The notes under the pieces were generated by a model. The model had not been told where the DNA came from. It worked only from the letters and a program-made list of their open reading frames with translations, and did no database searches. The position numbers and the translations under genes were made by a program. A DNA stretch of 64,000 nt from Parcubacteria group bacterium (lineage in GTDB: Bacteria; Patescibacteriota; Minisyncoccia; Moranbacterales; UBA9337): positions 11,454 to 75,453 of the forward strand of contig JBAZSW010000004.1 in the NCBI GenBank assembly GCA_041662245.1. The letters run 5' to 3'. Numbering within the stretch: the first letter of the stretch is position 1; each line of letters starts with the position of its first letter. Shown here in pieces: positions 5,635-17,104 of this stretch.

Positions 5635-6369
5635 TTATTTTAGTTTTATTTTATTATTTATTTTTTTCATCATGTATTCAGCCTTTAGCCAATCAAATTC
5701 ATTATCTATATCAATTGATCTTTCTTTCGGCACAATATGTCCAACAATATTATTCCCAAAAATCTTATTTTTCTTCATCAATAGATCCCTGGTCATTACA
5801 TAAACTGCACCGCTTCTTTTGTAAGCAGTTGGCAAATCCTGACGTCTAAAAACATTCTCCTTAATGCAATACGGAAATACCCTGTCTCCAATAATTTTTT
5901 TTATTTTAATTGGATGATTGCAATCAATCTCAACAAGGCTAACTGCTGAATCTGCCTGTTTATTATTTATAATCTTTTTCAGAGTTTCATCAATATCTTT
6001 TGCCTCACGTAATGGAGAAGTTGGCTGGAGAATAACAACGTAATCAAAAATGATGCCTAACTTTTTCTCCATAAAATCATTGGCATGTTTCATGACATCG
6101 ATATGACTAGCTGTATCAGATGCTAATGCGGCTGGACGCAAAAAAGGAACCTGAACTTTTAATTTTTTTGATATATCAGCTATCTTTTTATCATCTGTAG
6201 AAACAATCAGATGGGAAATCAATTTACTTTTCTTTGCCACTTGGATTGTATAAACAACAAGAGGCTTCTTTCTTAATTTTTTTAGATTTTTTCCCGGAAT
6301 TCCCTTTGAACCGCTTCTGGCAGTGATAACCGCTAATATCTTATATTTTTTTTTCATAAATCTAATCAA
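5635..6369 (-). CDS. neuA: Acylneuraminate (nonulosonate) cytidylyltransferase, CMP-NeuAc synthetase family.
   Basis: N-terminal ILAVITARSGSKGIPGKNLKKL signature of the CTP_transf_3 family. Confidence 0.85.
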   Translation of the reverse strand: MIRFMKKKYKILAVITARSGSKGIPGKNLKKLRKKPLVVYTIQVAKKSKLISHLIVSTDDKKIADISKKLKVQVPFLRPAALASDTASHIDVMKHANDFMEKKLGIIFDYVVILQPTSPLREAKDIDETLKKIINNKQADSAVSLVEIDCNHPIKIKKIIGDRVFPYCIKENVFRRQDLPTAYKRSGAVYVMTRDLLMKKNKIFGNNIVGHIVPKERSIDIDNEFDWLKAEYMMKKINNKIKLK

Positions 6370-7525
6370 TAAATTCTTTTTGAGTGTAAAGTTTTATCTT
6401 GGCTAAAACTCTAGCGATTTCTTTACTTGTATCATTTGAATGATATAGACAAGATTGTTCATATCTACCTACCTTTAATTGACGCCTGATTGCTTTTTCA
6501 ATCTCTTTATTTGAATTATTGCAACGAATAACATTTTGCGCCCTTAAACGATTATCTTGCCTTTGCCCAATATCCACAACTGGGATTCCTAAATATGAAC
6601 ATTCCTTAATACCAGCTGAAGAATTTCCAACTAAACATCTTGCGTTGGATAGTAGTCTCAGAAATTTTTTAGGATGCAAGTATCTCAGAAATTTTATTTT
6701 ATGATCGACTTCTTGATCATTAAACAATCTCAATTCATGAGATATTTTTTCTGCACCTGCATCAAAATTAGGCCAAAACCACAAAATCTGAATATCGAAT
6801 TTATTCACTGCCTTTAGAATCTCTCTTGTATAAATAGATAAATTATCAATTTGACTTGTAACAGGATGAAACATTACCATAATATACTCTTTAGTAAAGT
6901 CAAAATTCGCACCACTACCCACATTTTTTAAATTTATATTCCCATTTTCTTTTAAAACTTTTTTTGCAACTTCAATATCCGGACTTCCAAAATTAAATAC
7001 ATATTTTTTTCTTTCTCCCATTCTTAAAATTCTTTCATATGCATCTTCGTTTGTTGCAAAATGTACATGTGAAAGTTTAGTTATGGCATGTCTTACTGAT
7101 TCATCTAACGTTCCACTTTTATCCCCTCCTTCTATATGAGCAACTGGAATATTCATATACGAAGCGGCTATAGTAGCAGCAAGTACTTCAAATCTATCTG
7201 CTCTTACAACAACTACATCTGGATTTATTTCATTAAAAACAGATGAGAATTCAACTATTCCCAACCCTACCGTCTTAGATTTTGTAATAACATTGTCGCC
7301 CTCCAAATTGAAATGAACTTCGTAAACAAATTTGTAATTCTCTTTTTCTAATATATTTTTTATATTGAAATCATGTGAAACATGTTTACTCAAAAGCACA
7401 GAACCACCTAAAACAATATGTAATTCAACATCTTCTCTTTTTTTTAATTCATTGAGAATTAAAAAATTCCGACTATAATGAATTGGACTAGTAATTACAA
7501 AACAAATCTTTCTTTTGTGAATCAT
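6362..7525 (-). CDS. neuC: UDP-N-acetylglucosamine 2-epimerase (NeuC-type hydrolysing epimerase inferred from context).
   Basis: Epimerase_2 motifs RADRFEVLAATIAA, PVAHIEGGD, DESVRHAITKLSHVHF. Flanked by neuA and neuB. Confidence 0.8.
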   Translation of the reverse strand: MIHKRKICFVITSPIHYSRNFLILNELKKREDVELHIVLGGSVLLSKHVSHDFNIKNILEKENYKFVYEVHFNLEGDNVITKSKTVGLGIVEFSSVFNEINPDVVVVRADRFEVLAATIAASYMNIPVAHIEGGDKSGTLDESVRHAITKLSHVHFATNEDAYERILRMGERKKYVFNFGSPDIEVAKKVLKENGNINLKNVGSGANFDFTKEYIMVMFHPVTSQIDNLSIYTREILKAVNKFDIQILWFWPNFDAGAEKISHELRLFNDQEVDHKIKFLRYLHPKKFLRLLSNARCLVGNSSAGIKECSYLGIPVVDIGQRQDNRLRAQNVIRCNNSNKEIEKAIRRQLKVGRYEQSCLYHSNDTSKEIARVLAKIKLYTQKEFID

Positions 7526-9256: not shown

Positions 9257-10549
9257 CTATTGAAATGCAAAATACTTCTTTCTAATTGCCAAACTTACAA
9301 CATAAGCCATTACCCATACAAAAAAACTTAAATTGAAAGCTACCACCGCACCAAAAAGGCCATATTTAAAAATTAAAGTAAATGACAAAATAATTTTGGT
9401 AATATAATAAACGGTATCTGAGAAAACAATAACTGCATTCATTTTCTTTGCATATACATATCTTACAATCATATTCTGAGGAATATATAAAATAATAAAC
9501 AAGACAAAATATTTTGAATACGAATAATATTCTGTATAGTTAGTGCCAAACAATAGCAAACAAAGTTTTACGATAAAAAAATAATAAAATACTGATAATA
9601 TTAAAATCACTATACCAAAAAATAATACAATTGCTCGTTTATTTTTTAGTAACTGCCATAAGTCTTCATTCGTAATTATAAATTTAGGAAAAAGTATACT
9701 TAAAAGTGGCTTCACACTTTCTCTTAACTTGATTGGAATCAATGAAACAATTGAATACGCAGCTAGTGTCACGGGGGACAAAAAAGTTGCTAGTATAATT
9801 TTATCTACATTATCAGCCACTATTCCAAGTGCACTAATTTTTGTTAAAAAAAATCCATATTTATCAACATCTGGATCTTTATTATTATTATTTATATATT
9901 TTAAACTTTTTTGATAAAATAAAACATTAAATAAAGCAAAAATTCCTAGATATATGGTCGCTATTACTAACAAATTATCCTTATAAAACAAAATAGCCAA
10001 AACAGAAAATAAGGTATTTACAATTGATTGAATGGAAAAATATTTAGCTGAAATGTCAAAAAGTGCCTTTCCTTGCAAAAAACTATCCCATGTATTGAAA
10101 GCATAAAAGAATGGAAAAATTATTGAAGTTACCAGTAAAGATATTCCTAATGGAAAACTTTCCTTTATGTAATAAAATCCAATAATCCAAAGGATGGGAA
10201 TCCCTATAATACTCCATAAAAAACTTTTTTTAACGACACTCTGATAATTCCCATCACTTCCATTGGCAACTGCCGCAGAAATTGATGTATTTAAACCTGA
10301 AATAGAACAAATTGAAACTATGGACCAAATAGAAATTATCAATTGATATTGACCAAATACTTCTTTGCTTAAAAATCTAGCGAAAGAAATATATAGAATC
10401 AAGCCAGCAATAATAGTTATAATTTGTCTTAAGCTAACCCAAAAACCATTCTTAATAAAATATGGCAAGTCGAGGCCTATTTTTTTGCCCAATTTTTTAG
10501 ATAAACTATAGACTTTTTCTTGTATTTTATTTATTATTTTCATATTCAA
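9257..10549 (-). CDS. Polysaccharide biosynthesis protein / Wzx-like flippase (MOP superfamily).
   Basis: 430 aa and ~12 predicted TM helices. Typical Wzx length and placement at the end of a glycan locus. Confidence 0.7.
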   Translation of the reverse strand: MNMKIINKIQEKVYSLSKKLGKKIGLDLPYFIKNGFWVSLRQIITIIAGLILYISFARFLSKEVFGQYQLIISIWSIVSICSISGLNTSISAAVANGSDGNYQSVVKKSFLWSIIGIPILWIIGFYYIKESFPLGISLLVTSIIFPFFYAFNTWDSFLQGKALFDISAKYFSIQSIVNTLFSVLAILFYKDNLLVIATIYLGIFALFNVLFYQKSLKYINNNNKDPDVDKYGFFLTKISALGIVADNVDKIILATFLSPVTLAAYSIVSLIPIKLRESVKPLLSILFPKFIITNEDLWQLLKNKRAIVLFFGIVILILSVFYYFFIVKLCLLLFGTNYTEYYSYSKYFVLFIILYIPQNMIVRYVYAKKMNAVIVFSDTVYYITKIILSFTLIFKYGLFGAVVAFNLSFFVWVMAYVVSLAIRKKYFAFQ

Positions 10550-10553
10550 ATAA

Positions 10554-10667
10554 TTTTTTTGAGGAATTTTCGCATTTCATCACTCATTTCATGCCCAAAA
10601 ACCCTTACGTGTACAGCTTCAGTCAAAGTTATCAATTGTAATTTCAAATTCTCAATCATTTTTTTCT
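10554..10667. repeat. R1 repeat copy A (~100 nt family). Core: gcccaaaaaccc...acagcttcagtcaaagttatcaattgtaatttcaaattctcaatcattttttt.
   Basis: Near-identical to copies at 12441-12550, 13745-13815 and 14207-14295, all in the same orientation. Confidence 0.9.
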
Positions 10668-10687
10668 TTCAATTATTTCATTCTCTA

Positions 10688-10762
10688 AAATGTATCAACA
10701 TACCACCTGCCCGCTAGTTGCTACAGCGTTGCAGGCGGGCGGCCGTGCCAACTCGACACATT
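10688..10762. repeat. R2 palindromic repeat (tgtatcaacataccac|ggccg|tgccaactcgacaca). A 35-nt GC-rich hairpin element H is inserted at 10706-10741.
   Basis: Compare insert-free copies at 14655-14694 and 15299-15337. An identical H-bearing copy sits at 14334-14405. Confidence 0.9.
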
Positions 10763-10842
10763 GTATTCATATTATCCCAAAGCTCGACGACCACATTATT
10801 TTAACACAATCCCAAATACTAGCCCAATTCAAATACCTATCA

Positions 10843-12279
10843 TCAAACAAGTAAAAAATATTTCAGCGGTATTTGCACAATGTTCTCCTTTTCAAAAATA
10901 TTCAATTCGTTTTTTGATATAACCAGTCCATATTTTGCTTTTACTTTAGACGCTGTTTGAATTACTTGAGATATACCTTTATTTCCCATCCCAACCTCTA
11001 TTATAATTTTCTCCCTTGCAAAACCCAAGATAAAATCCGCTCCACCCTGGGCATTATCATACGTGAGTGAAGTATTTATTTTTTTGAAAAGAAATCTACT
11101 TAAGTACATTCCAATCGTATCCTCCAGTAGTTTTCCTGAATAATTTTCTTTTGAAATTACATTACCAATAAAGTTATAATACATTGATCGGAAAGCTGGC
11201 GAAGCAAATAGGTATTTGGAAGGCTTTTTTACCTGATTCAAATGAGAGCCGTGAGGATACACTCTAATTAATGTTTCAGTTTTCTCTAGCGCATTAAAAA
11301 TTTCCATAATTTTAGGACGACTAATGTTGAAAATTTCCGATAATTTTACATAACTTAGTTGTTCTATATCTGCAGTCGCATAAAGAATTGAAGGAATTTT
11401 TGAAATTGTTTCCGAATTAAATTGACCAGTCCTGGCGACATCACTGTTGATTATCCTATCTAACGTTTTATTTATTTGATCATAAACCAAGGCCTCATTG
11501 TTTAACATAACCATAAAAGGAAGCGAGCCATATCTCATATATCTTTCCATCTCCATTCTTTCGATATCAATCCAATATTCATTTATTCTATTTTCGATTC
11601 TGCGCATACCTGCATAGACATCTACCGCAGAGACTGAATTAAAAATTACTCTTCGAACTTCTTTTCGAAGACCTGCTGTTTCACTTTTTCCTGTCTTAAT
11701 TTTCATATATTCCACAAAACTGAGTGGGAACAATTTTTCAAATATAGCCCTTCTTGCGATATCGGGGTTCGTATTAAGATTTAGCGCCGAAGATCCAGTA
11801 GCAAAAATAAAAACATTTTTTGACCTATCATACAGACTTTTTAATGTGATAGCCCATTTTTCATCATATTGGATCTCATCAAGAAATAGATAAAGAGGTT
11901 TATCAAGTCTTTCCATTGCGACTCCAATTAAATCTTCATATGCTTCCAAAACATCATTCAATCCGACGCCAAGAATTTGAACTATATGATCAACTGATAA
12001 ATATAACCGGCGAACATCTCTGTTTTTTTCCACATAATACAACTGTGACATAATTGTAGTCTTTCCGGCGCCCCGAAGGCCGGTCAAAATAAGCCACCTG
12101 GCAGTGGATTTGTGTTCAAAAAAATCCGTAAAATATTTATGTAATTTTATATAAATATTTCTCTTGGGTCGTAGCTTTTTATTTTCATCGAAAATATAAG
12201 CTTCAGCTCGAAAATCCGCCTGCGAAATTTGATCTTGCAAAAACTTTATTATCTTTTCTCTTTTTTCATTATTAGCCAT
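10843..12279 (-). CDS. AAA+ ATPase (AAA_14-like) with a C-terminal DUF4143-like domain.
   Basis: Walker A GLRGAGKTT and Walker B LFLDEIQ. 478 aa architecture typical of archaeal-type ATPase/DUF4143 proteins. Confidence 0.8.
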   Translation of the reverse strand: MANNEKREKIIKFLQDQISQADFRAEAYIFDENKKLRPKRNIYIKLHKYFTDFFEHKSTARWLILTGLRGAGKTTIMSQLYYVEKNRDVRRLYLSVDHIVQILGVGLNDVLEAYEDLIGVAMERLDKPLYLFLDEIQYDEKWAITLKSLYDRSKNVFIFATGSSALNLNTNPDIARRAIFEKLFPLSFVEYMKIKTGKSETAGLRKEVRRVIFNSVSAVDVYAGMRRIENRINEYWIDIERMEMERYMRYGSLPFMVMLNNEALVYDQINKTLDRIINSDVARTGQFNSETISKIPSILYATADIEQLSYVKLSEIFNISRPKIMEIFNALEKTETLIRVYPHGSHLNQVKKPSKYLFASPAFRSMYYNFIGNVISKENYSGKLLEDTIGMYLSRFLFKKINTSLTYDNAQGGADFILGFAREKIIIEVGMGNKGISQVIQTASKVKAKYGLVISKNELNIFEKENIVQIPLKYFLLV

Positions 12280-12440
12280 ACCATTTTAAAATTATTTTAA
12301 TGCTAAATATAGTTTACATTAAAACTATAAATCTTGTCAATATTTATTTACAAGTGTATAGAGACTCCCTATTTACGGCTAATTTAAACAACTTTTTGCT
12401 ATTTTTCTTGTTTGCTTTCTTAAGTTAAAACGGAAGGGGG

Positions 12441-12550
12441 TTTTGAGGAATTTTCGCATTTCATCACTCCGGCCCTGCCCAAAAACCCGCCGATGCACAG
12501 CTTCAGTCAAAGTTATCAATTGTAATTTCAAATTCTCAATCATTTTTTTG
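12441..12550. repeat. R1 repeat copy B.
   Basis: ttttgaggaattttcgcatttcatcact...gcccaaaaaccc...acagcttcagtcaaagttatcaattgtaatttcaaattctcaatcattttttt. It lies immediately 5' of the ATPase gene on the minus strand. Confidence 0.9.
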
Positions 12551-12629
12551 TTTCAATAATTTTTATTTTTTTATCCATTTCTAATATCTAGTTATTATTG
12601 TTTTTGTACATTAGTAATGTATATTATTT

Positions 12630-13676
12630 TCAGTCTTTTATATATGTTATTTTCATCTTATAGTAAGTCGCCCTTCCTTTGCCAAACTTTTCAATTATCC
12701 CTAGGGATATTAATTTCCTAAAATCAAGATTTCTCGTCGGTTTTGCTCGTGTAGTTAGCTTAGCATAATCTCGATCGCTAACATATCCATTATTCTCTAT
12801 GTATTTGATAATTTTCTTGTGATAATTCTTAATTGCCGTATCGGGAGAGATGACCACCTTTTCAAGCTCTTTACTGACGCGTAATAGTTCATCAATAATT
12901 CCGTCTGTAAAATATTCCAGCCACGACGTAAAATCGAATTGATCTTTAATATCATAATAATTTCCCATTACACCAACTTCTTGAAAATATTTACTGACAT
13001 TATTATTGTAATAATTTTCAAAACTAAAAAGATTAAAAGTATTTAGTCCCATTTTGGCTAATAATACCTTAGTGGCTAGACGAGCTGTTCTGCCATTGCC
13101 ATCAATAAAGGGATGGATGATTACAAATTGCTTATGAAATAATCCAGCCAAAATCAACGGGTCAATGATATCTTTATTTATATTTATATAACTCAATAAG
13201 TCATTCATCAGCTCTAATACGTCTAATTGCTCTGGTGGCAGATAAACGACCTGGCGAGCTCTTGGATCATTTACAAAAACTGCTTCTTGCCTTAATCGTC
13301 CGCATCGATGCTTTTCAATTAAATCTTGTGTTATGTTTTTTTGAATCTCCAATATCAAATCTAAATCAAAAGAATGCTCTTTATCTTTTGACAAAGAGCT
13401 CAGAGTAATTAACGCCTTATTGTAATTTAAAACTTCCCTCTCGCTATCACGAACATGTTTGGGGGCATTTTTTATAATTCTTTTAACGTCAGTCAAGGGT
13501 AATGGGTTTCCTTCAATGCTCGTAGAAGAAAAGGCGGAAATTTCCCGCGCCCGCCTCTCAAATTCTGCCAAAACAACATCCGAAAAATTCCGATTATTCA
13601 AATCAGTAATAATTTCAGTTATTTTTTTAATGTTAGCTAATAGTTGGCTAGAAATAGTATATTTTGGCTCAAACAT
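12630..13676 (-). CDS. Fic family protein (class II, with an N-terminal autoinhibitory helix).
   Basis: Fic active-site motif HPFIDGNGRTARL. Inhibitory (S/T)xxxE(G/N) motif STSIEGN in the N-terminal Fic_N region. C-terminal wHTH-like tail. Confidence 0.9.
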   Translation of the reverse strand: MFEPKYTISSQLLANIKKITEIITDLNNRNFSDVVLAEFERRAREISAFSSTSIEGNPLPLTDVKRIIKNAPKHVRDSEREVLNYNKALITLSSLSKDKEHSFDLDLILEIQKNITQDLIEKHRCGRLRQEAVFVNDPRARQVVYLPPEQLDVLELMNDLLSYININKDIIDPLILAGLFHKQFVIIHPFIDGNGRTARLATKVLLAKMGLNTFNLFSFENYYNNNVSKYFQEVGVMGNYYDIKDQFDFTSWLEYFTDGIIDELLRVSKELEKVVISPDTAIKNYHKKIIKYIENNGYVSDRDYAKLTTRAKPTRNLDFRKLISLGIIEKFGKGRATYYKMKITYIKD

Positions 13677-13744
13677 AGATAATGATAGTTACTTATATAG
13701 ACTAATTATAGACGATTATTAGACGATTGTCAACCTCTTACTCA

Positions 13745-13815
13745 GCCCAAAAACCCTCAGGTGCACAGCTTCAGTCAAAACAATTAACCTTAATTTCAAT
13801 ATTCTCAATCATTTC
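13745..13815. repeat. R1 repeat copy C, in the divergent region between Fic and the 80-aa gene.
   Basis: gcccaaaaaccctcaggtgcacagcttcagtcaaaacaattaaccttaatttcaatattctcaatcattt. Confidence 0.85.
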
Positions 13816-13911
13816 TATATTATGCATTATTTTACAATATTTTACAATTTAGCTATAATCTAGCCATAAGACTCGTTTGACACTCCCGAAGTAAGGTTTT
13901 ATAATTAAACT

Positions 13912-14154
13912 ATGAAAAATAACAACAAAACAAAAAAAGAAATGACTATTGATGATTTAGCGCTAATGGTAGCTAAAGGCTTTAATGATGCAAATGAAAG
14001 GATGAATAAACGTTTTGATCAAGTAGATAAGAGATTTGAGAAAATTGAATCACGCCTTAAAAATATTGAAGCTGATCTTAATAAAAAGTTAGACAAAATT
14101 GAACATAACACTCTTATTTATCGAGTTGAAAAATTAGAGAAGAAATTTGCTTAA
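13912..14154 (+). CDS. Small coiled-coil hypothetical protein (80 aa).
   Basis: Heptad-rich K/E sequence (MNKRFDQVDKRFEKIESRLKNIEADLNKKLDKIE). A hairpin terminator follows at 14184-14212. Confidence 0.5.
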   Translation: MKNNNKTKKEMTIDDLALMVAKGFNDANERMNKRFDQVDKRFEKIESRLKNIEADLNKKLDKIEHNTLIYRVEKLEKKFA

Positions 14155-14183
14155 TATAAAATTTTAGAATTATTCAAAATATA

Positions 14184-14212
14184 AACAGGTCCACAACCTG
14201 TTTTTTTATCAC
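14184..14212 (+). terminator. Rho-independent terminator (aacaggtccacaacctgtttttttat).
   Basis: 7-bp stem aacaggt/acctgtt with a 4-nt loop and a T7 tract, directly after the 80-aa ORF. Confidence 0.7.
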
Positions 14213-14295
14213 TCATCTCATGCCCAAAAACCCTCAGGTGCACAGCTTCAGTCAAGGTTATCAATTGTAATTTCAAATTCTCAATCATTTTTTTC
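14207..14295. repeat. R1 repeat copy D.
   Basis: atcactcatctcatgcccaaaaaccctcaggtgcacagcttcagtcaaggttatcaattgtaatttcaaattctcaatcattttttt. Confidence 0.9.
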
Positions 14296-14333
14296 TTTTT
14301 TTAAAATATTTCACCTTTCTTACCTATTCCCCA

Positions 14334-14405
14334 AAATGTATCAACATACCACCTGCCCGCTAGTTGCTACAGCGTTGCAGGCGGGCGGCCGTGCCAACTC
14401 GACAC
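14334..14405. repeat. R2 palindromic repeat copy with the H hairpin insert (14353-14388).
   Basis: Identical to 10688-10762 over ~72 nt (aaaatgtatcaacataccacctgcccgctagttgctacagcgttgcaggcgggcggccgtgccaactcgacac). Confidence 0.9.
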
Positions 14406-14654
14406 CTACCTATATCGCCCCAATTATAAATCCCGAACCCATCCATTTCTCTATTATGCATTATTTTTCCGCTCCCGCCCATACTTGAAAATTTTATTAT
14501 TTAGGTGCACAATCTAAATGCAATGACATCTCGAAAGAGAAGCTCTGAGATTCCAACTAGACGGGGTCGTTTTTTTATTCCAAATCTCGGACAGAAGTTC
14601 ACACAATTCACATTGTTAGGTGGAGATTTTTTTATTTTATTTTTCTTTTTTTTA

Positions 14655-14694
14655 AAATGTATCAACATACCACGGCCGTGTTAAGTTGACACAT
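14655..14694. promoter_or_regulatory. R2 palindrome without insert (tgtatcaacataccac ggccg tgttaagttgacaca), 25 nt downstream of the PaaX-like gene.
   Basis: Imperfect inverted arms (13/16) around a GGCCG centre. Candidate dimeric-regulator binding site. Confidence 0.5.
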
Positions 14695-14717
14695 TATATT
14701 GACATTGCAAACAAATG

Positions 14718-15290
14718 CTAGATTTCTAAATTAAAAAGTTTTGCAAAATGTCTTTTAATCTTATCTTCATTATCAATTTTTAAGGCTGTAATAACTCTGA
14801 CATATTTTTGAGCAGAATACAAATCAATCACTTCCAGCATGGCTTCTTCCAAAGGATAAGGAGAAACAAATACGCTATGTTGAAGTTTAAAAAATTTAAG
14901 CTCTCGCAAATGATCTCGTAAAATATCGCGAAAAGCTCGGTCTTTCTCTGGAATGTCAAAAAGAACAATTCTCCATCTATTATCCCACTTTCTTGGCTTC
15001 TTAAAATTTATTGATTTTCCAATCAGACTAAGCATTCTTGCCTGCTTTATCCCCTCTGCAGTAAGCAGTAATTTAAAGGAACCATTGGGAGATATTTTTT
15101 CTTCAATTAATTTTTCTTTCGAAAGTTTACTGATGGAGCGATTAAAATTACGCTGGTCTATCCTTTCCCAATCTTTTTTTAATGTTCGAAGTGTCCTAAA
15201 ATACTGTCTAGAAGAATTCGATACTCCTAAAGCCACACCGCCCAAAAGCACTAGCATAATCTTTTTTTGTGTTGTTCCAAATTTATGCAT
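14718..15290 (-). CDS. PaaX_C-like domain protein (putative transcriptional regulator; Cas2/VapD-like fold family).
   Basis: C-terminal WDNRWRIVLFDIPEKDRAFRDILRDHLRELKFFKLQHSVFVSPYP matches the PaaX C-terminal domain consensus pattern. Recognised from memory and not searched. Confidence 0.5.
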   Translation of the reverse strand: MHKFGTTQKKIMLVLLGGVALGVSNSSRQYFRTLRTLKKDWERIDQRNFNRSISKLSKEKLIEEKISPNGSFKLLLTAEGIKQARMLSLIGKSINFKKPRKWDNRWRIVLFDIPEKDRAFRDILRDHLRELKFFKLQHSVFVSPYPLEEAMLEVIDLYSAQKYVRVITALKIDNEDKIKRHFAKLFNLEI

Positions 15291-15298
15291 ACATTATT

Positions 15299-15337
15299 TG
15301 TATCAACATACCACGGCCGTGTTAAGTCGACACATTT
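15299..15337. promoter_or_regulatory. R2 palindrome without insert, immediately upstream (-9 to -47) of the PaaX-like gene start.
   Basis: tgtatcaacataccacggccgtgttaagtcgacacat. Its position relative to the start codon suggests an operator/promoter. Confidence 0.5.
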
Positions 15338-15625
15338 ATTATATTACTTTTTTGGCATACACTGTAACAATAGGTATATCTAAATATACATTAAAACATG
15401 ATTTTTACTGATAGTCTTTACCCCATTAAATAAAAACTTATCGGACGAAAAAAATACAACTATAATTTCAAAGACTCCTTGGAAAGATTGCGTTTTATTT
15501 ATTATATTTTACCACTTTTCAAATATTAGTTCAAAGCAAGATTCCTGAAGCTAGTCCTGATTGCAAAAAGAAATTATTGTCGTGCCATGGACTTTTCAGA
15601 CATGCTTCATTATAATTAAGTTACT

Positions 15626-17104
15626 ATGAAAAAAAGCATTCATCATATATTAATTCAACCCTATTTAGGTATAAGTCTATTGCTTTTAGTATTTCTGCTA
15701 AAAGGGTTTTTATTTGTAACTATCTTACCTATTTTTCAAGGTCCCGATGAACCTATTCATTATGCCACTATCCAATATTTTGCAGAACCTAAGGAAAAAA
15801 ATTGGGATATCCAAAAAATCGACAAGGAAGATTTCTTCCCTGATGGAGATAATACGAATACTTATCATTATTCTCAAGAAATCAAAAAAACAGCTGAAAT
15901 TTCCCAATTTGATGAAATAAAATTTCATGGTACGAATACTTCACTTTTCTTATCTGGATCTGATGGAGCAATTGAGCAAACCCTCCCTCAAGCTTCTTGG
16001 AAAAAATATATTGATTCTTATCCTCCCTCCATAGTTGGCGGCCCATCTTTATATTATTTAGTTACTTCCCAAATTGAAAAGTTTTTTTCATCCTCTGACA
16101 TTTTGGTTCGTTTTTTTTCCATTCGCATATTCTCTGTTTTTTTAGGAATATTAACTGTCCTTTTGGCTTATTTAACTACGTTAAAAGCTGGCTTCACCCA
16201 AAAACAGGCCTTGGTAATCTCTACCATTATCGCCTTTCAACCCATGTTTACCCAGACAGCAGCTATAATAAATTATGACATCCCTTTAATATTTGCCTTT
16301 TCACTTTTTACTTATGCGACAGTTGCTCTTCTGAGACATGGCTTTCAATGGAAATATTTTTGTTTTCTTTTTTTGGGAGCATTGGTAGGAATATTAGTCA
16401 AAGGAACGGGTCTTATTTTGCCCGTTTTGATTTTTCCGATTTTAATTTATCTTATTTATCAAAAAACAGATTTTGGTTTAGGCAAAAAAAAGTTTTTCTT
16501 TTATCTATCCGCTCTTTTTGTCATAGCTATTGCGTTTTTTATTATTTTCGGACCAAAAGGAACTACCGAAATTTTTACCGATTTTTCGGCAACTTCGAAT
16601 TTTTCCTCCCCGCTTGAATCATTACAGAAATACATTGTCATCACTGCAGAACGCTGGGACTTTTTTGAGCTTACTTATTGGGGGAGCTTTGGCTGGCTAG
16701 ACGCACAGGTTTCTGATTATGTATTAATTTTTATTTGGCTAACAGAAATAGTTGCCCTAGCAGGAATAGTTTATGCATTTTTCTTTAAAAAAATCCCATC
16801 TTCTTTTTTACCCGAAAAAAAATATATAATTTTTATGATTTTAATGCTAGTTGCCCTTCAAGGCTTAATTCGTTTTTATGATTGGAAAATTTTTTACAGT
16901 GATGGTTCTATTATAATCGGAACTCCAGGGAGATACTTTTTGCCTAATATTATTTCACATTTTTTGGTTTTATTTTTTGGCCTAGGATCCTTTTTCTCAA
17001 AAAAGAAACATTTTGATATATTGCTAATAACTTCCTTAATTTTAATGATTGGATTTTTCTTCTATTCTCTTTTTAATATTATTATCCCTCGCTATTATTT
17101 ATGA
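15626..17104 (+). CDS. Polytopic membrane protein, GT-C-fold glycosyltransferase-like (DUF2142/ArnT/PMT-like).
   Basis: ~12 TM helices. The first periplasmic loop carries the GPDEPIHY (DE) motif typical of GT-C enzymes. Confidence 0.45.
   Translation: MKKSIHHILIQPYLGISLLLLVFLLKGFLFVTILPIFQGPDEPIHYATIQYFAEPKEKNWDIQKIDKEDFFPDGDNTNTYHYSQEIKKTAEISQFDEIKFHGTNTSLFLSGSDGAIEQTLPQASWKKYIDSYPPSIVGGPSLYYLVTSQIEKFFSSSDILVRFFSIRIFSVFLGILTVLLAYLTTLKAGFTQKQALVISTIIAFQPMFTQTAAIINYDIPLIFAFSLFTYATVALLRHGFQWKYFCFLFLGALVGILVKGTGLILPVLIFPILIYLIYQKTDFGLGKKKFFFYLSALFVIAIAFFIIFGPKGTTEIFTDFSATSNFSSPLESLQKYIVITAERWDFFELTYWGSFGWLDAQVSDYVLIFIWLTEIVALAGIVYAFFFKKIPSSFLPEKKYIIFMILMLVALQGLIRFYDWKIFYSDGSIIIGTPGRYFLPNIISHFLVLFFGLGSFFSKKKHFDILLITSLILMIGFFFYSLFNIIIPRYYL

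Follow-up and report, generated by a model that had tools for sequence, protein, structure and literature searches.

PaaX is the phenylacetyl-coenzyme A (phenylacetyl-CoA)-responsive repressor of E. coli and Pseudomonas, in which a C-terminal helical domain, PaaX_C, senses phenylacetyl-CoA. PaaX binds TGATTC-N27-GAATCA and represses its own promoter by sterically excluding RNA polymerase (PMC9493321). Here we describe a smaller relative of PaaX that is encoded on a 64,000-nucleotide (nt) stretch of DNA from a Parcubacteria group bacterium (hereafter the window), where its gene, termed mini-PaaX, lies between two intact copies of a palindromic repeat, R2. Co-location, geometry, co-evolution of recognition helix and palindrome arms, and promoter-like context, all computed directly, make it probable that the protein encoded between the intact copies has R2 as its cognate double-stranded DNA site, with the upstream copy serving negative autoregulation. 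The locus would then be a self-regulating switch of a known general kind, a PaaX-type repressor with its operator, whose unusual feature is that the sites bracket the gene.

PaaX and the window protein both begin with a winged helix at the N terminus, behind which comes a Cas2-like dimerisation domain (PaaX_M; 8a39). PaaX also has widely spaced inverted repeats and own-promoter repression, to which R2 compares in that its conserved CAT...ATG blocks stand 20 base pairs (bp) apart and the 34-bp site overlaps the putative promoter of the gene. However, the window protein lacks PaaX_C and hence has no evident ligand sensor, and its proposed operator differs in having an invariant CGGCCG centre and a second site after the stop codon. 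The mini-PaaX family also differs from PaaX in having several paralogues of different specificity per genome; there are no paa genes nearby and no paa-pathway family occurs among the 25 most frequent neighbour Pfam families (96 neighbours). Cas2 has in common with the family a ferredoxin-like fold and the motif FDIPE...R..R...KLQ.SVF, and some databases label family members Cas2. However, the window protein scores below the Cas2 cutoffs (19.3 versus 23.8 for PF09827 and 23.9 versus 24.5 for TIGR01573), its Cas2-like domain is fused to a winged helix, no Cas family is found among the 25 commonest neighbour families, and the arrays at one related locus (L020) are duplications rather than CRISPR spacer arrays.

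A further comparison is with repetitive extragenic palindromes (REPs) and REP-associated tyrosine transposases (RAYTs). RAYTs are Y1-HUH transposases, and REPs carry a 5' GTAG and are dispersed in hundreds genome-wide. As in that system, the mini-PaaX gene is flanked by genome-specific imperfect palindromes of ~35 nt, and there are solitary intergenic copies. However, there is no HUH/Y1 transposase domain, the centre is an invariant CGGCCG rather than a 5' GTAG, and the arm code of R2-type palindromes follows the helix-turn-helix, which indicates duplex recognition. An identity as a REP-like dispersed repeat was rejected because the copies cluster round the gene, with a density that drops ~1000-fold within 10 kilobases (kb).

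A truncated PaaX relative and its flanking palindromes

The mini-PaaX gene encodes a 190-amino-acid (aa) protein whose start, M1, is invariant among 25 homologues. The central Cas2-like domain, PaaX_M (PF20803), covers residues 100-175 (E = 1.3e-22; 80.1 bits versus a cutoff of 24), and the protein ends ~15 residues beyond it. Pfam gives no PaaX_C match in the protein, and the score against the PaaX equivalog TIGR02277 is 32.2 versus a cutoff of 264.55. In the AlphaFold2 (AF2) model, which has a mean predicted local distance difference test score of 70, residues 6-76 form a winged helix, with three helices (6-22, 27-43 and 47-58) and a beta-hairpin wing (strands 62-66 and 72-76), which is followed by a ferredoxin-like domain. 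Residues 47, 48 and 51 lie at the beginning of the third helix of the winged helix, and the Asp of the FDIPE motif in the Cas2-like domain is invariant. Ranking by fold against the PDB places E. coli PaaX (8a39) and M. tuberculosis Rv0674 (3kfw) first and then many Cas2 structures, the latter being weak Foldseek matches (E 0.02-0.3, template modelling scores of ~0.3 relative to the query). A PDB search by sequence profile returned marginal winged-helix matches only; the PaaX relationship is drawn from Pfam and fold comparison. The 190-aa protein is a truncated two-domain PaaX relative, composed of a winged helix and a Cas2-like PaaX_M without PaaX_C; the label PaaX_C-like that the original prediction gave it was wrong, as PaaX_M and a winged helix are present while PaaX_C has no match. 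The protein family is large: clustering at 50% identity gives 2358 clusters with E up to 1e-10, and most are of 180-200 aa. Several members carry the public names "CRISPR-associated endonuclease Cas2" or [quoted passage not shown], both of which are misleading.

In the window, the R2 left arm, TGTATCAACATACCAC, occurs exactly on the plus strand at 10691, 14337, 14658 and 15299, where shuffles lead one to expect 0.39 matches when up to 3 mismatches are allowed. GGCCGTGTTAAGTTGACACA, the right arm, is found at 14674 (0 mismatches) and 15315 (1 mismatch) against a shuffle expectation of 0.00. The two palindromes that flank the gene span 14658-14693 and 15299-15334 and are nearly identical, differing in gene sense by one base. 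Each intact R2 is best described as 34 bp, consisting of a 14-nt arm, CGGCCG and a second 14-nt arm. CGGCCG itself occurs five times in the 64 kb versus 1.1-1.6 expected, with four of the five inside R2 copies, and there is no palindrome in the remaining 49 kb of the window. Chance accounts for none of this arrangement. The original prediction had described R2 as an imperfect palindrome with 13/16 matching arm positions, which we reproduce (3 mismatches to the reverse complement). It had also placed one copy at -9..-47 from the ATG (15299-15337) and another just past the stop (14655-14693, ending 24 nt beyond it), both correctly, and the two additional intergenic copies that it listed are real (10691-10759 and 14337-14405), each with the same 34-nt GC-rich insert.

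The arrangement in related genomes

The first four orthologous contigs, which encode proteins of 72-88% identity, have CACGGCCGTG-like-centred palindromes just before the start and just after the stop, with different neighbours. A comparative set of 61 loci from species-representative genomes (Moranbacteria/Parcubacteria) was scanned together with these four contigs and the window, a palindrome being defined as a core CG[GA][CT]CG with at least 8/14 arm pairs. Arm complementarity at such cores is bimodal, with a background mode at 3-4/14 and a second population that reaches 14/14. A palindrome is present within 130 nt upstream of the gene in 46/61 loci (60 related loci and the window), within 130 nt downstream in 50/61 and on both sides in 37/61; many of the loci without a palindrome call are at contig ends or have weaker arms. 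In the 150 nt nearest the gene there are 5.9 palindromes per kb; this density declines to 0.39 between 150 and 500 nt, to ~0.05 between 1 and 5 kb and to 0.005 between 5 and 10 kb, and none was found in the 43 kb that lie more than 10 kb from the gene. Base-pair complementarity of the arms is held for pairs 1-14 and is at background from pair 15. The arms are fully different between genomes with the symmetry kept, and genomes hold two to three copies of the family gene. Even five distant relatives with 26-31% identity to the window protein, some on Saccharibacteria-titled contigs, are all bracketed by palindromes with the same core. A scan of metagenome contigs with the 16-mer TGTATCAACATACCAC returned at least 120 single chance matches, and none of the matches listed has the R2 core.

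A number of individual loci show variations of this layout. On two Saccharibacteria-titled contigs (L062 and L063, 9386-11152) the distant family member has a CYTH-domain gene on either side, and each of the two gaps holds a palindrome. In eight orthologues (L008, L016, L028, L034, L035, L049, L052 and L054) the stop codon falls within the left arm of the downstream palindrome (…TCATAA…), so that the coding sequence and the proposed binding site overlap. Pairs of palindromes 52-70 nt apart occur at L003, L004, L016, L020, L022, L028 and L053, and L020 has at least eight tandem units of ~68 nt at 5880-6450, each composed of a 36-nt palindrome and a related linker of ~32 nt, located 3.6-4.1 kb upstream of the family gene. 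Despite the CRISPR-like period, an interpretation as CRISPR-like mini-arrays was rejected, as the L020 linkers are related to one another and thus reflect tandem duplication.

Recognition helix, palindrome arms and promoter context

The arms of the palindromes covary with residues at the start of the predicted recognition helix. The strongest of all residue-by-base pairs is residue 48 with base -11 (mutual information 1.23, shuffle maximum 0.38), followed by residue 47 with -13 and -14 (0.96 and 0.87, against shuffle maxima of 0.54 and 0.51) and residue 51 with -9 and -10, the next value in the series being 0.61 against 0.33. Asn at position 48 goes with T at -11 in 104/110 half-sites, Ser with A in 61/72 and Lys with C in 11/12, and the switch between Asn and Ser recurs across many residue-47 backgrounds. 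Additionally, R47 goes with G(-14)T(-13), R51 with C(-10)A(-9), and Tyr or Ser at 51 with T(-10). On a neighbour-joining tree built with the recognition helix left out, and with changes inferred by parsimony, residue 48 changes 14 times, and in 11 of these cases -11 changes on the same branch, where chance would give 1.75; these include six independent Asn-to-Ser changes that accompany T-to-A. The window protein, with R47, N48 and R51, is predicted to read GT[AG]TCA, which is present on both arms of all four R2 copies. As a hold-out, a truncated viral-contig copy of the gene also obeys the code. Furthermore, half-sites differ among the paralogues of one genome. The inner arms are identical at 0.71 within a palindrome, 0.64-0.69 across palindromes of one locus and 0.34 between loci; half-sites are therefore about equally alike within and across palindromes, so that each locus has one consensus half-site. 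This pattern agrees with a single protein specificity at each locus and not with a constraint from folding back.

The upstream palindromes have a recurrent position relative to a promoter-like sequence. Of those catalogued in the window and the related loci, 28 have their core centre 24-36 nt ahead of the ATG, with exactly 27 as the commonest distance. The right arm of this class continues into TGnTACAAT, which ends 6 nt before the ATG, while the six bases left of the core are -35-like (TTnnCA), with a spacer of 17 nt. The match to a -10 element is directional (3.89/6 versus 2.57 on the mirror side), that to a -35 element is 2.96 versus 2.32, and the TG extension is present in 82% of the class. 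Inner-arm symmetry is lower in upstream copies (0.61) than in downstream copies (0.76), as expected if promoter function constrains the arms. In the window there are likewise 6 nt between the -10-like TACAAA and the ATG. This geometry implies a leaderless or near-leaderless messenger RNA, with a putative repressor site in the promoter spacer. The prior suggestion that R2 is the predicted site of the regulator, with the upstream copy on its own promoter, is thus borne out at the level of prediction by the relatives, by helix-arm co-evolution and by promoter geometry.

Binding itself, repression and the role of the Cas2-like domain are inferred from these observations. A homodimer would occupy the 34-bp site with each winged helix reading one 14-bp half-site, the outer bases -14..-9 being read by recognition-helix residues 47, 48 and 51, and the invariant CGGCCG between the half-sites would probably be held by the conserved Cas2-like dimer. 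A position of the dimerisation domain over the core is suggested by the distant relatives that keep this core, in which the Cas2-like domain alone is conserved. Occupancy of the upstream site should then block RNA polymerase, with negative autoregulation as the outcome, like that of PaaX on its promoter Px. The upstream palindrome is consequently our proposed autoregulatory operator.

Several points weigh against this interpretation. The support for it is entirely comparative, and common ancestry of the palindromes within a locus inflates the half-site similarity measures. One hold-out locus, L043, breaks the code with Ser at 48 and G at -11. There is no credible residue covarying with inner arm positions -7..-2, where the top z-scores are singleton artefacts, and no protein reader is assigned to the invariant CGGCCG core. 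The -10-like TACAAA of the window lacks the consensus final T, so that a consensus scan omits the site; most relatives have a more certain promoter than the window does. Finally, a conserved site at the 3' end of the regulator gene is surplus to simple autoregulation, and this copy is independent of the orientation of the next gene, which is on the same strand in 40/58 cases (69%) versus a baseline of 76%.

The downstream copy is conserved like the upstream one, often abuts or contains the stop codon, and is a perfect 14/14 palindrome in 13/56 cases. A role as promoter or operator of the next gene was rejected since there is no same-strand excess over the baseline. The copy occurs with co-directional and convergent next genes alike and therefore belongs to the gene unit and not to the neighbour. 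We take the downstream copy as a second site of the gene unit that may act by looping with the upstream site, as a roadblock or terminator, in recombination, or in control of downstream sequence. In the window this copy also shows a promoter-pattern match at 14684..14656 (TTAACA, 17 nt, TG-TACATT). Between it and the nearest long R2 copy, on the plus strand at 14485-14576, there is a promoter-like TTGAAA, 17 nt, CACAAT, followed after ~40 nt by a terminator-like hairpin and T run; this interval could be a small transcript.

Table 1. Location of the mini-PaaX gene, the R2 copies and associated predicted features, in window coordinates
Feature	Position	Strand	Description or basis
mini-PaaX gene, 190-aa protein	14718..15290	minus	open reading frame (ORF) with Pfam PF20803, AF2 topology and fold matches
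Predicted recognition helix codons, residues 47-58	15117..15152	minus	AF2 helix, mutual information, parsimony co-changes
Upstream palindrome, proposed operator	15300..15333	minus	GTGTCGACTTAACA-CGGCCG-TGGTATGTTGATAC in gene sense; core centre 27 nt before ATG
Putative promoter over upstream palindrome	15297..15325	minus	TTAACA (15325-15320), 17-nt spacer with CGGCCG, TACAAA (15302-15297)
Downstream palindrome	14659..14692	minus	GTGTCAACTTAACA-CGGCCG-TGGTATGTTGATAC; begins 25 nt past stop
Long R2 copy	14337..14405	minus	in gene sense GTGTCGAGTTGGCA-CGGCCG (intact half-site and core), 34-nt insert, then TGGTATGTTGATAC
GC-rich hairpin insert, 34 nt	14353..14386		CTGCCCGCTAGTTGCTACAGCGTTGCAGGCGGGC; splits palindrome; identical copy at 10707-10740
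Second long R2 copy	10691..10759	minus	98% identical to 14337-14405 over 80 nt

Alternative explanations and significance

The original prediction had gone further in proposing that the four R2 copies may form a small regulon of the island. We consider it unlikely that all four are working operators through which the regulator controls the ATPase, Fic, 80-aa and flippase genes. The predicted GT[AG]TCA outer half-sites are kept in all four copies, and each long copy retains one intact half-site with the core. Moreover, at L020, L005 and L055 extra palindromes with the local half-site lie between neighbour genes up to ~5 kb away, so that control of neighbours is possible in general. However, in the long copies the insert sits between the core and one arm, which shifts the second half-site by 34 bp and leaves the arms complementary at only 8/14. 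The insert folds into its own hairpin and occurs just twice in the 64-kb window. Given their identity over 80 nt and the adjoining repeat R1, the two long copies are duplicates of one R1+R2 module and do not count as independent evidence for a regulon. The copy at 14337-14405 lies between the convergent 80-aa and mini-PaaX genes, and that at 10691-10759 lies 84 nt past the ATPase stop and 142-210 nt upstream of the flippase start, with R1 intervening. No convincing insert-split palindromes were found among the related loci searched, which also hold nothing similar to the insert itself. The insert-bearing copies may best be viewed as duplicated, disrupted derivatives that probably bind weakly or not at all.

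The neighbouring genes give the regulon little additional ground. In the window the mini-PaaX gene has glycosyltransferase, Fic, ATPase and flippase genes as neighbours. Two divergent 12/12 consensus promoters (TTGACA, 17 nt, TATAAT) are found at 13733..13705 (minus) and 13877..13905 (plus), from which it follows that consensus sigma-70 promoters exist in the source genome; one is directed at the Fic gene, the other at the gene for the 80-aa coiled-coil protein, neither has R2, and both genes thus have promoters of their own. Across relatives no neighbour family is conserved beside the unit. A search for a conserved partner gene among the immediate neighbours found none; these neighbours are heterogeneous, the 96 proteins having 100 Pfam families among them, of which AAA_14 and CYTH are the most frequent with four each. 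The four-site regulon is consequently the weak part of that proposal, as the remote copies are split and duplicated and the neighbours are not conserved.

Other features of the island are as follows. The AAA_14/DUF4143 ATPase and Fic genes occupy 10843-12279 and 12630-13676, both on the minus strand. The Fic protein matches PADLOC SoFic (5e-47) and the ATPase matches the candidate system PDC-S01 (1.4e-29), and on the basis of these matches the two genes look like anti-phage defence. R1 has four copies on the minus strand (10557-10678, 12441-12562, 13745-13799 and 14186-14307) with an invariant core of ~60 nt, ATGATTGAGAATTTGAAATTACAATTGATAACTTTGACTGAAGCTGTGCAC...GGGTTTTTGGGC. In gene sense R1 lies upstream of the flippase, ATPase and Fic genes, and within it is a short ORF (MIENLKLQLITLTEAVH...), with a frameshift in one of the copies; R1 was not found in 66 related loci and has no Rfam match. 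An independent assembly of the same sequence, a Logan contig (L001/L188), ends inside a long R2 copy at about window position 14376, which fits an assembly break induced by the repeated sequence of the duplicated R1+R2 module.

A second alternative is that the palindrome-gene-palindrome unit is a present or past mobile or excisable cassette, with R2 as loxP-like recombination or end sites (14+6+14) that cross over in CGGCCG, the protein as an end-binding or nuclease component acting through its Cas2-like domain, and solitary palindromes as empty or target sites. This we regard as distinctly improbable. The layout does resemble loxP, FRT and dif, which are likewise 34 bp with two 14-bp inverted arms and a 6-bp centre and have sites that flank gene modules, and palindromes stand on either side of the gene irrespective of the genes around it. 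The heterogeneity of these neighbours would suit a cassette, as would the presence of two to three copies per genome, the invariant FDIPE Asp, the defence-like genes nearby (SoFic, PDC-S01) and the solitary palindromes that separate other genes in L020, L037, L055 and the window. Synteny is lost below ~90% protein identity, but relatives of at least 92% identity mostly retain it. Unlike the recombination sites, the R2 centre is symmetric as well as invariant and hence confers no directionality; there is no recombinase in or beside the unit and no recombinase or transposase family among the commonest neighbour families, and no excision or integration polymorphism was seen. Near-identical copies of the gene in different contexts of the same genome are not found, the L006/L009 paralogues being 79% identical with different half-sites, and 2.9 million viral contigs yielded one incomplete copy only. 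Alternative contigs for the neighbouring PMT glycosyltransferase gene show the same arrangement only, no systematic search for empty sites having been made. Divergent paralogues, commonest neighbours that include no recombinase and the lack of any alternative arrangement argue in the same way against an insertion sequence. Additionally, we know of no strand-transfer activity for the Cas2 fold.

A related and still more speculative possibility is that the bracketed unit is a self-contained element in which the Cas2-like dimer nicks, excises or recombines at CGGCCG between the sites, with solitary palindromes in variable, defence-rich regions as footprints or targets. We hold this to be very unlikely; if true, it would establish a mechanistic connection, outside CRISPR, between a Cas2-fold protein and palindromic repeats of ~34 bp.

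It is equally improbable, in our estimate, that the palindromes act as single-strand hairpins, whether as RNA stem-loops, terminators, stabilisers or fold-back DNA, with their symmetry reflecting base pairing. At arm pairs 1-14 complementarity greatly exceeds that of shuffles, and most of these positions show all four pair types, the perfect downstream copies counted above would suit such a role, and the downstream window copy folds at -9.7 kcal/mol (z = -4.6). Downstream copies also abut the stop codon, and T-rich sequence follows about half of them in the relatives, so that a secondary terminator role for these copies is possible. However, there is no wobble strand bias (94 G-T versus 76 A-C mismatches in gene sense), half-sites are as similar across the palindromes of one locus as within a palindrome, and pure fold-back does not predict that arm bases covary with protein residues. 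The stems in the window are A+T-rich with mismatches, unlike an intrinsic terminator, and a terminator scan calls neither intact copy. Rfam gives no window match at the gathering threshold and nothing relevant at E up to 5 in 10300-15700, and a transfer RNA scan found nothing at the repeats. A dimer with drifting specificity is preferred over fold-back because of the covariation, the co-changes on the tree and the half-site similarity. An identity as integron attC sites was rejected as the defining features failed.

To our knowledge, almost nothing is known of transcription control in the Patescibacteria (candidate phyla radiation), which are mostly uncultured. With the proposed dimer and its operator, the mini-PaaX family provides a case in which a protein and its predicted DNA site can both be read from genomes. 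Its distinctive features are that the effector domain is lost, that the centre is an invariant CGGCCG, that the recognition code can be read and the paralogues are insulated, and that a strictly conserved second site stands behind the stop codon, the last of which poses a concrete question for experiment. These findings also correct the Cas2 annotations of family proteins. The simple rule that Asn, Ser or Lys at residue 48 goes with T, A or C at -11 is usable for target prediction in metagenomes, and the family constitutes a natural set of mutually insulated repressor-operator pairs.

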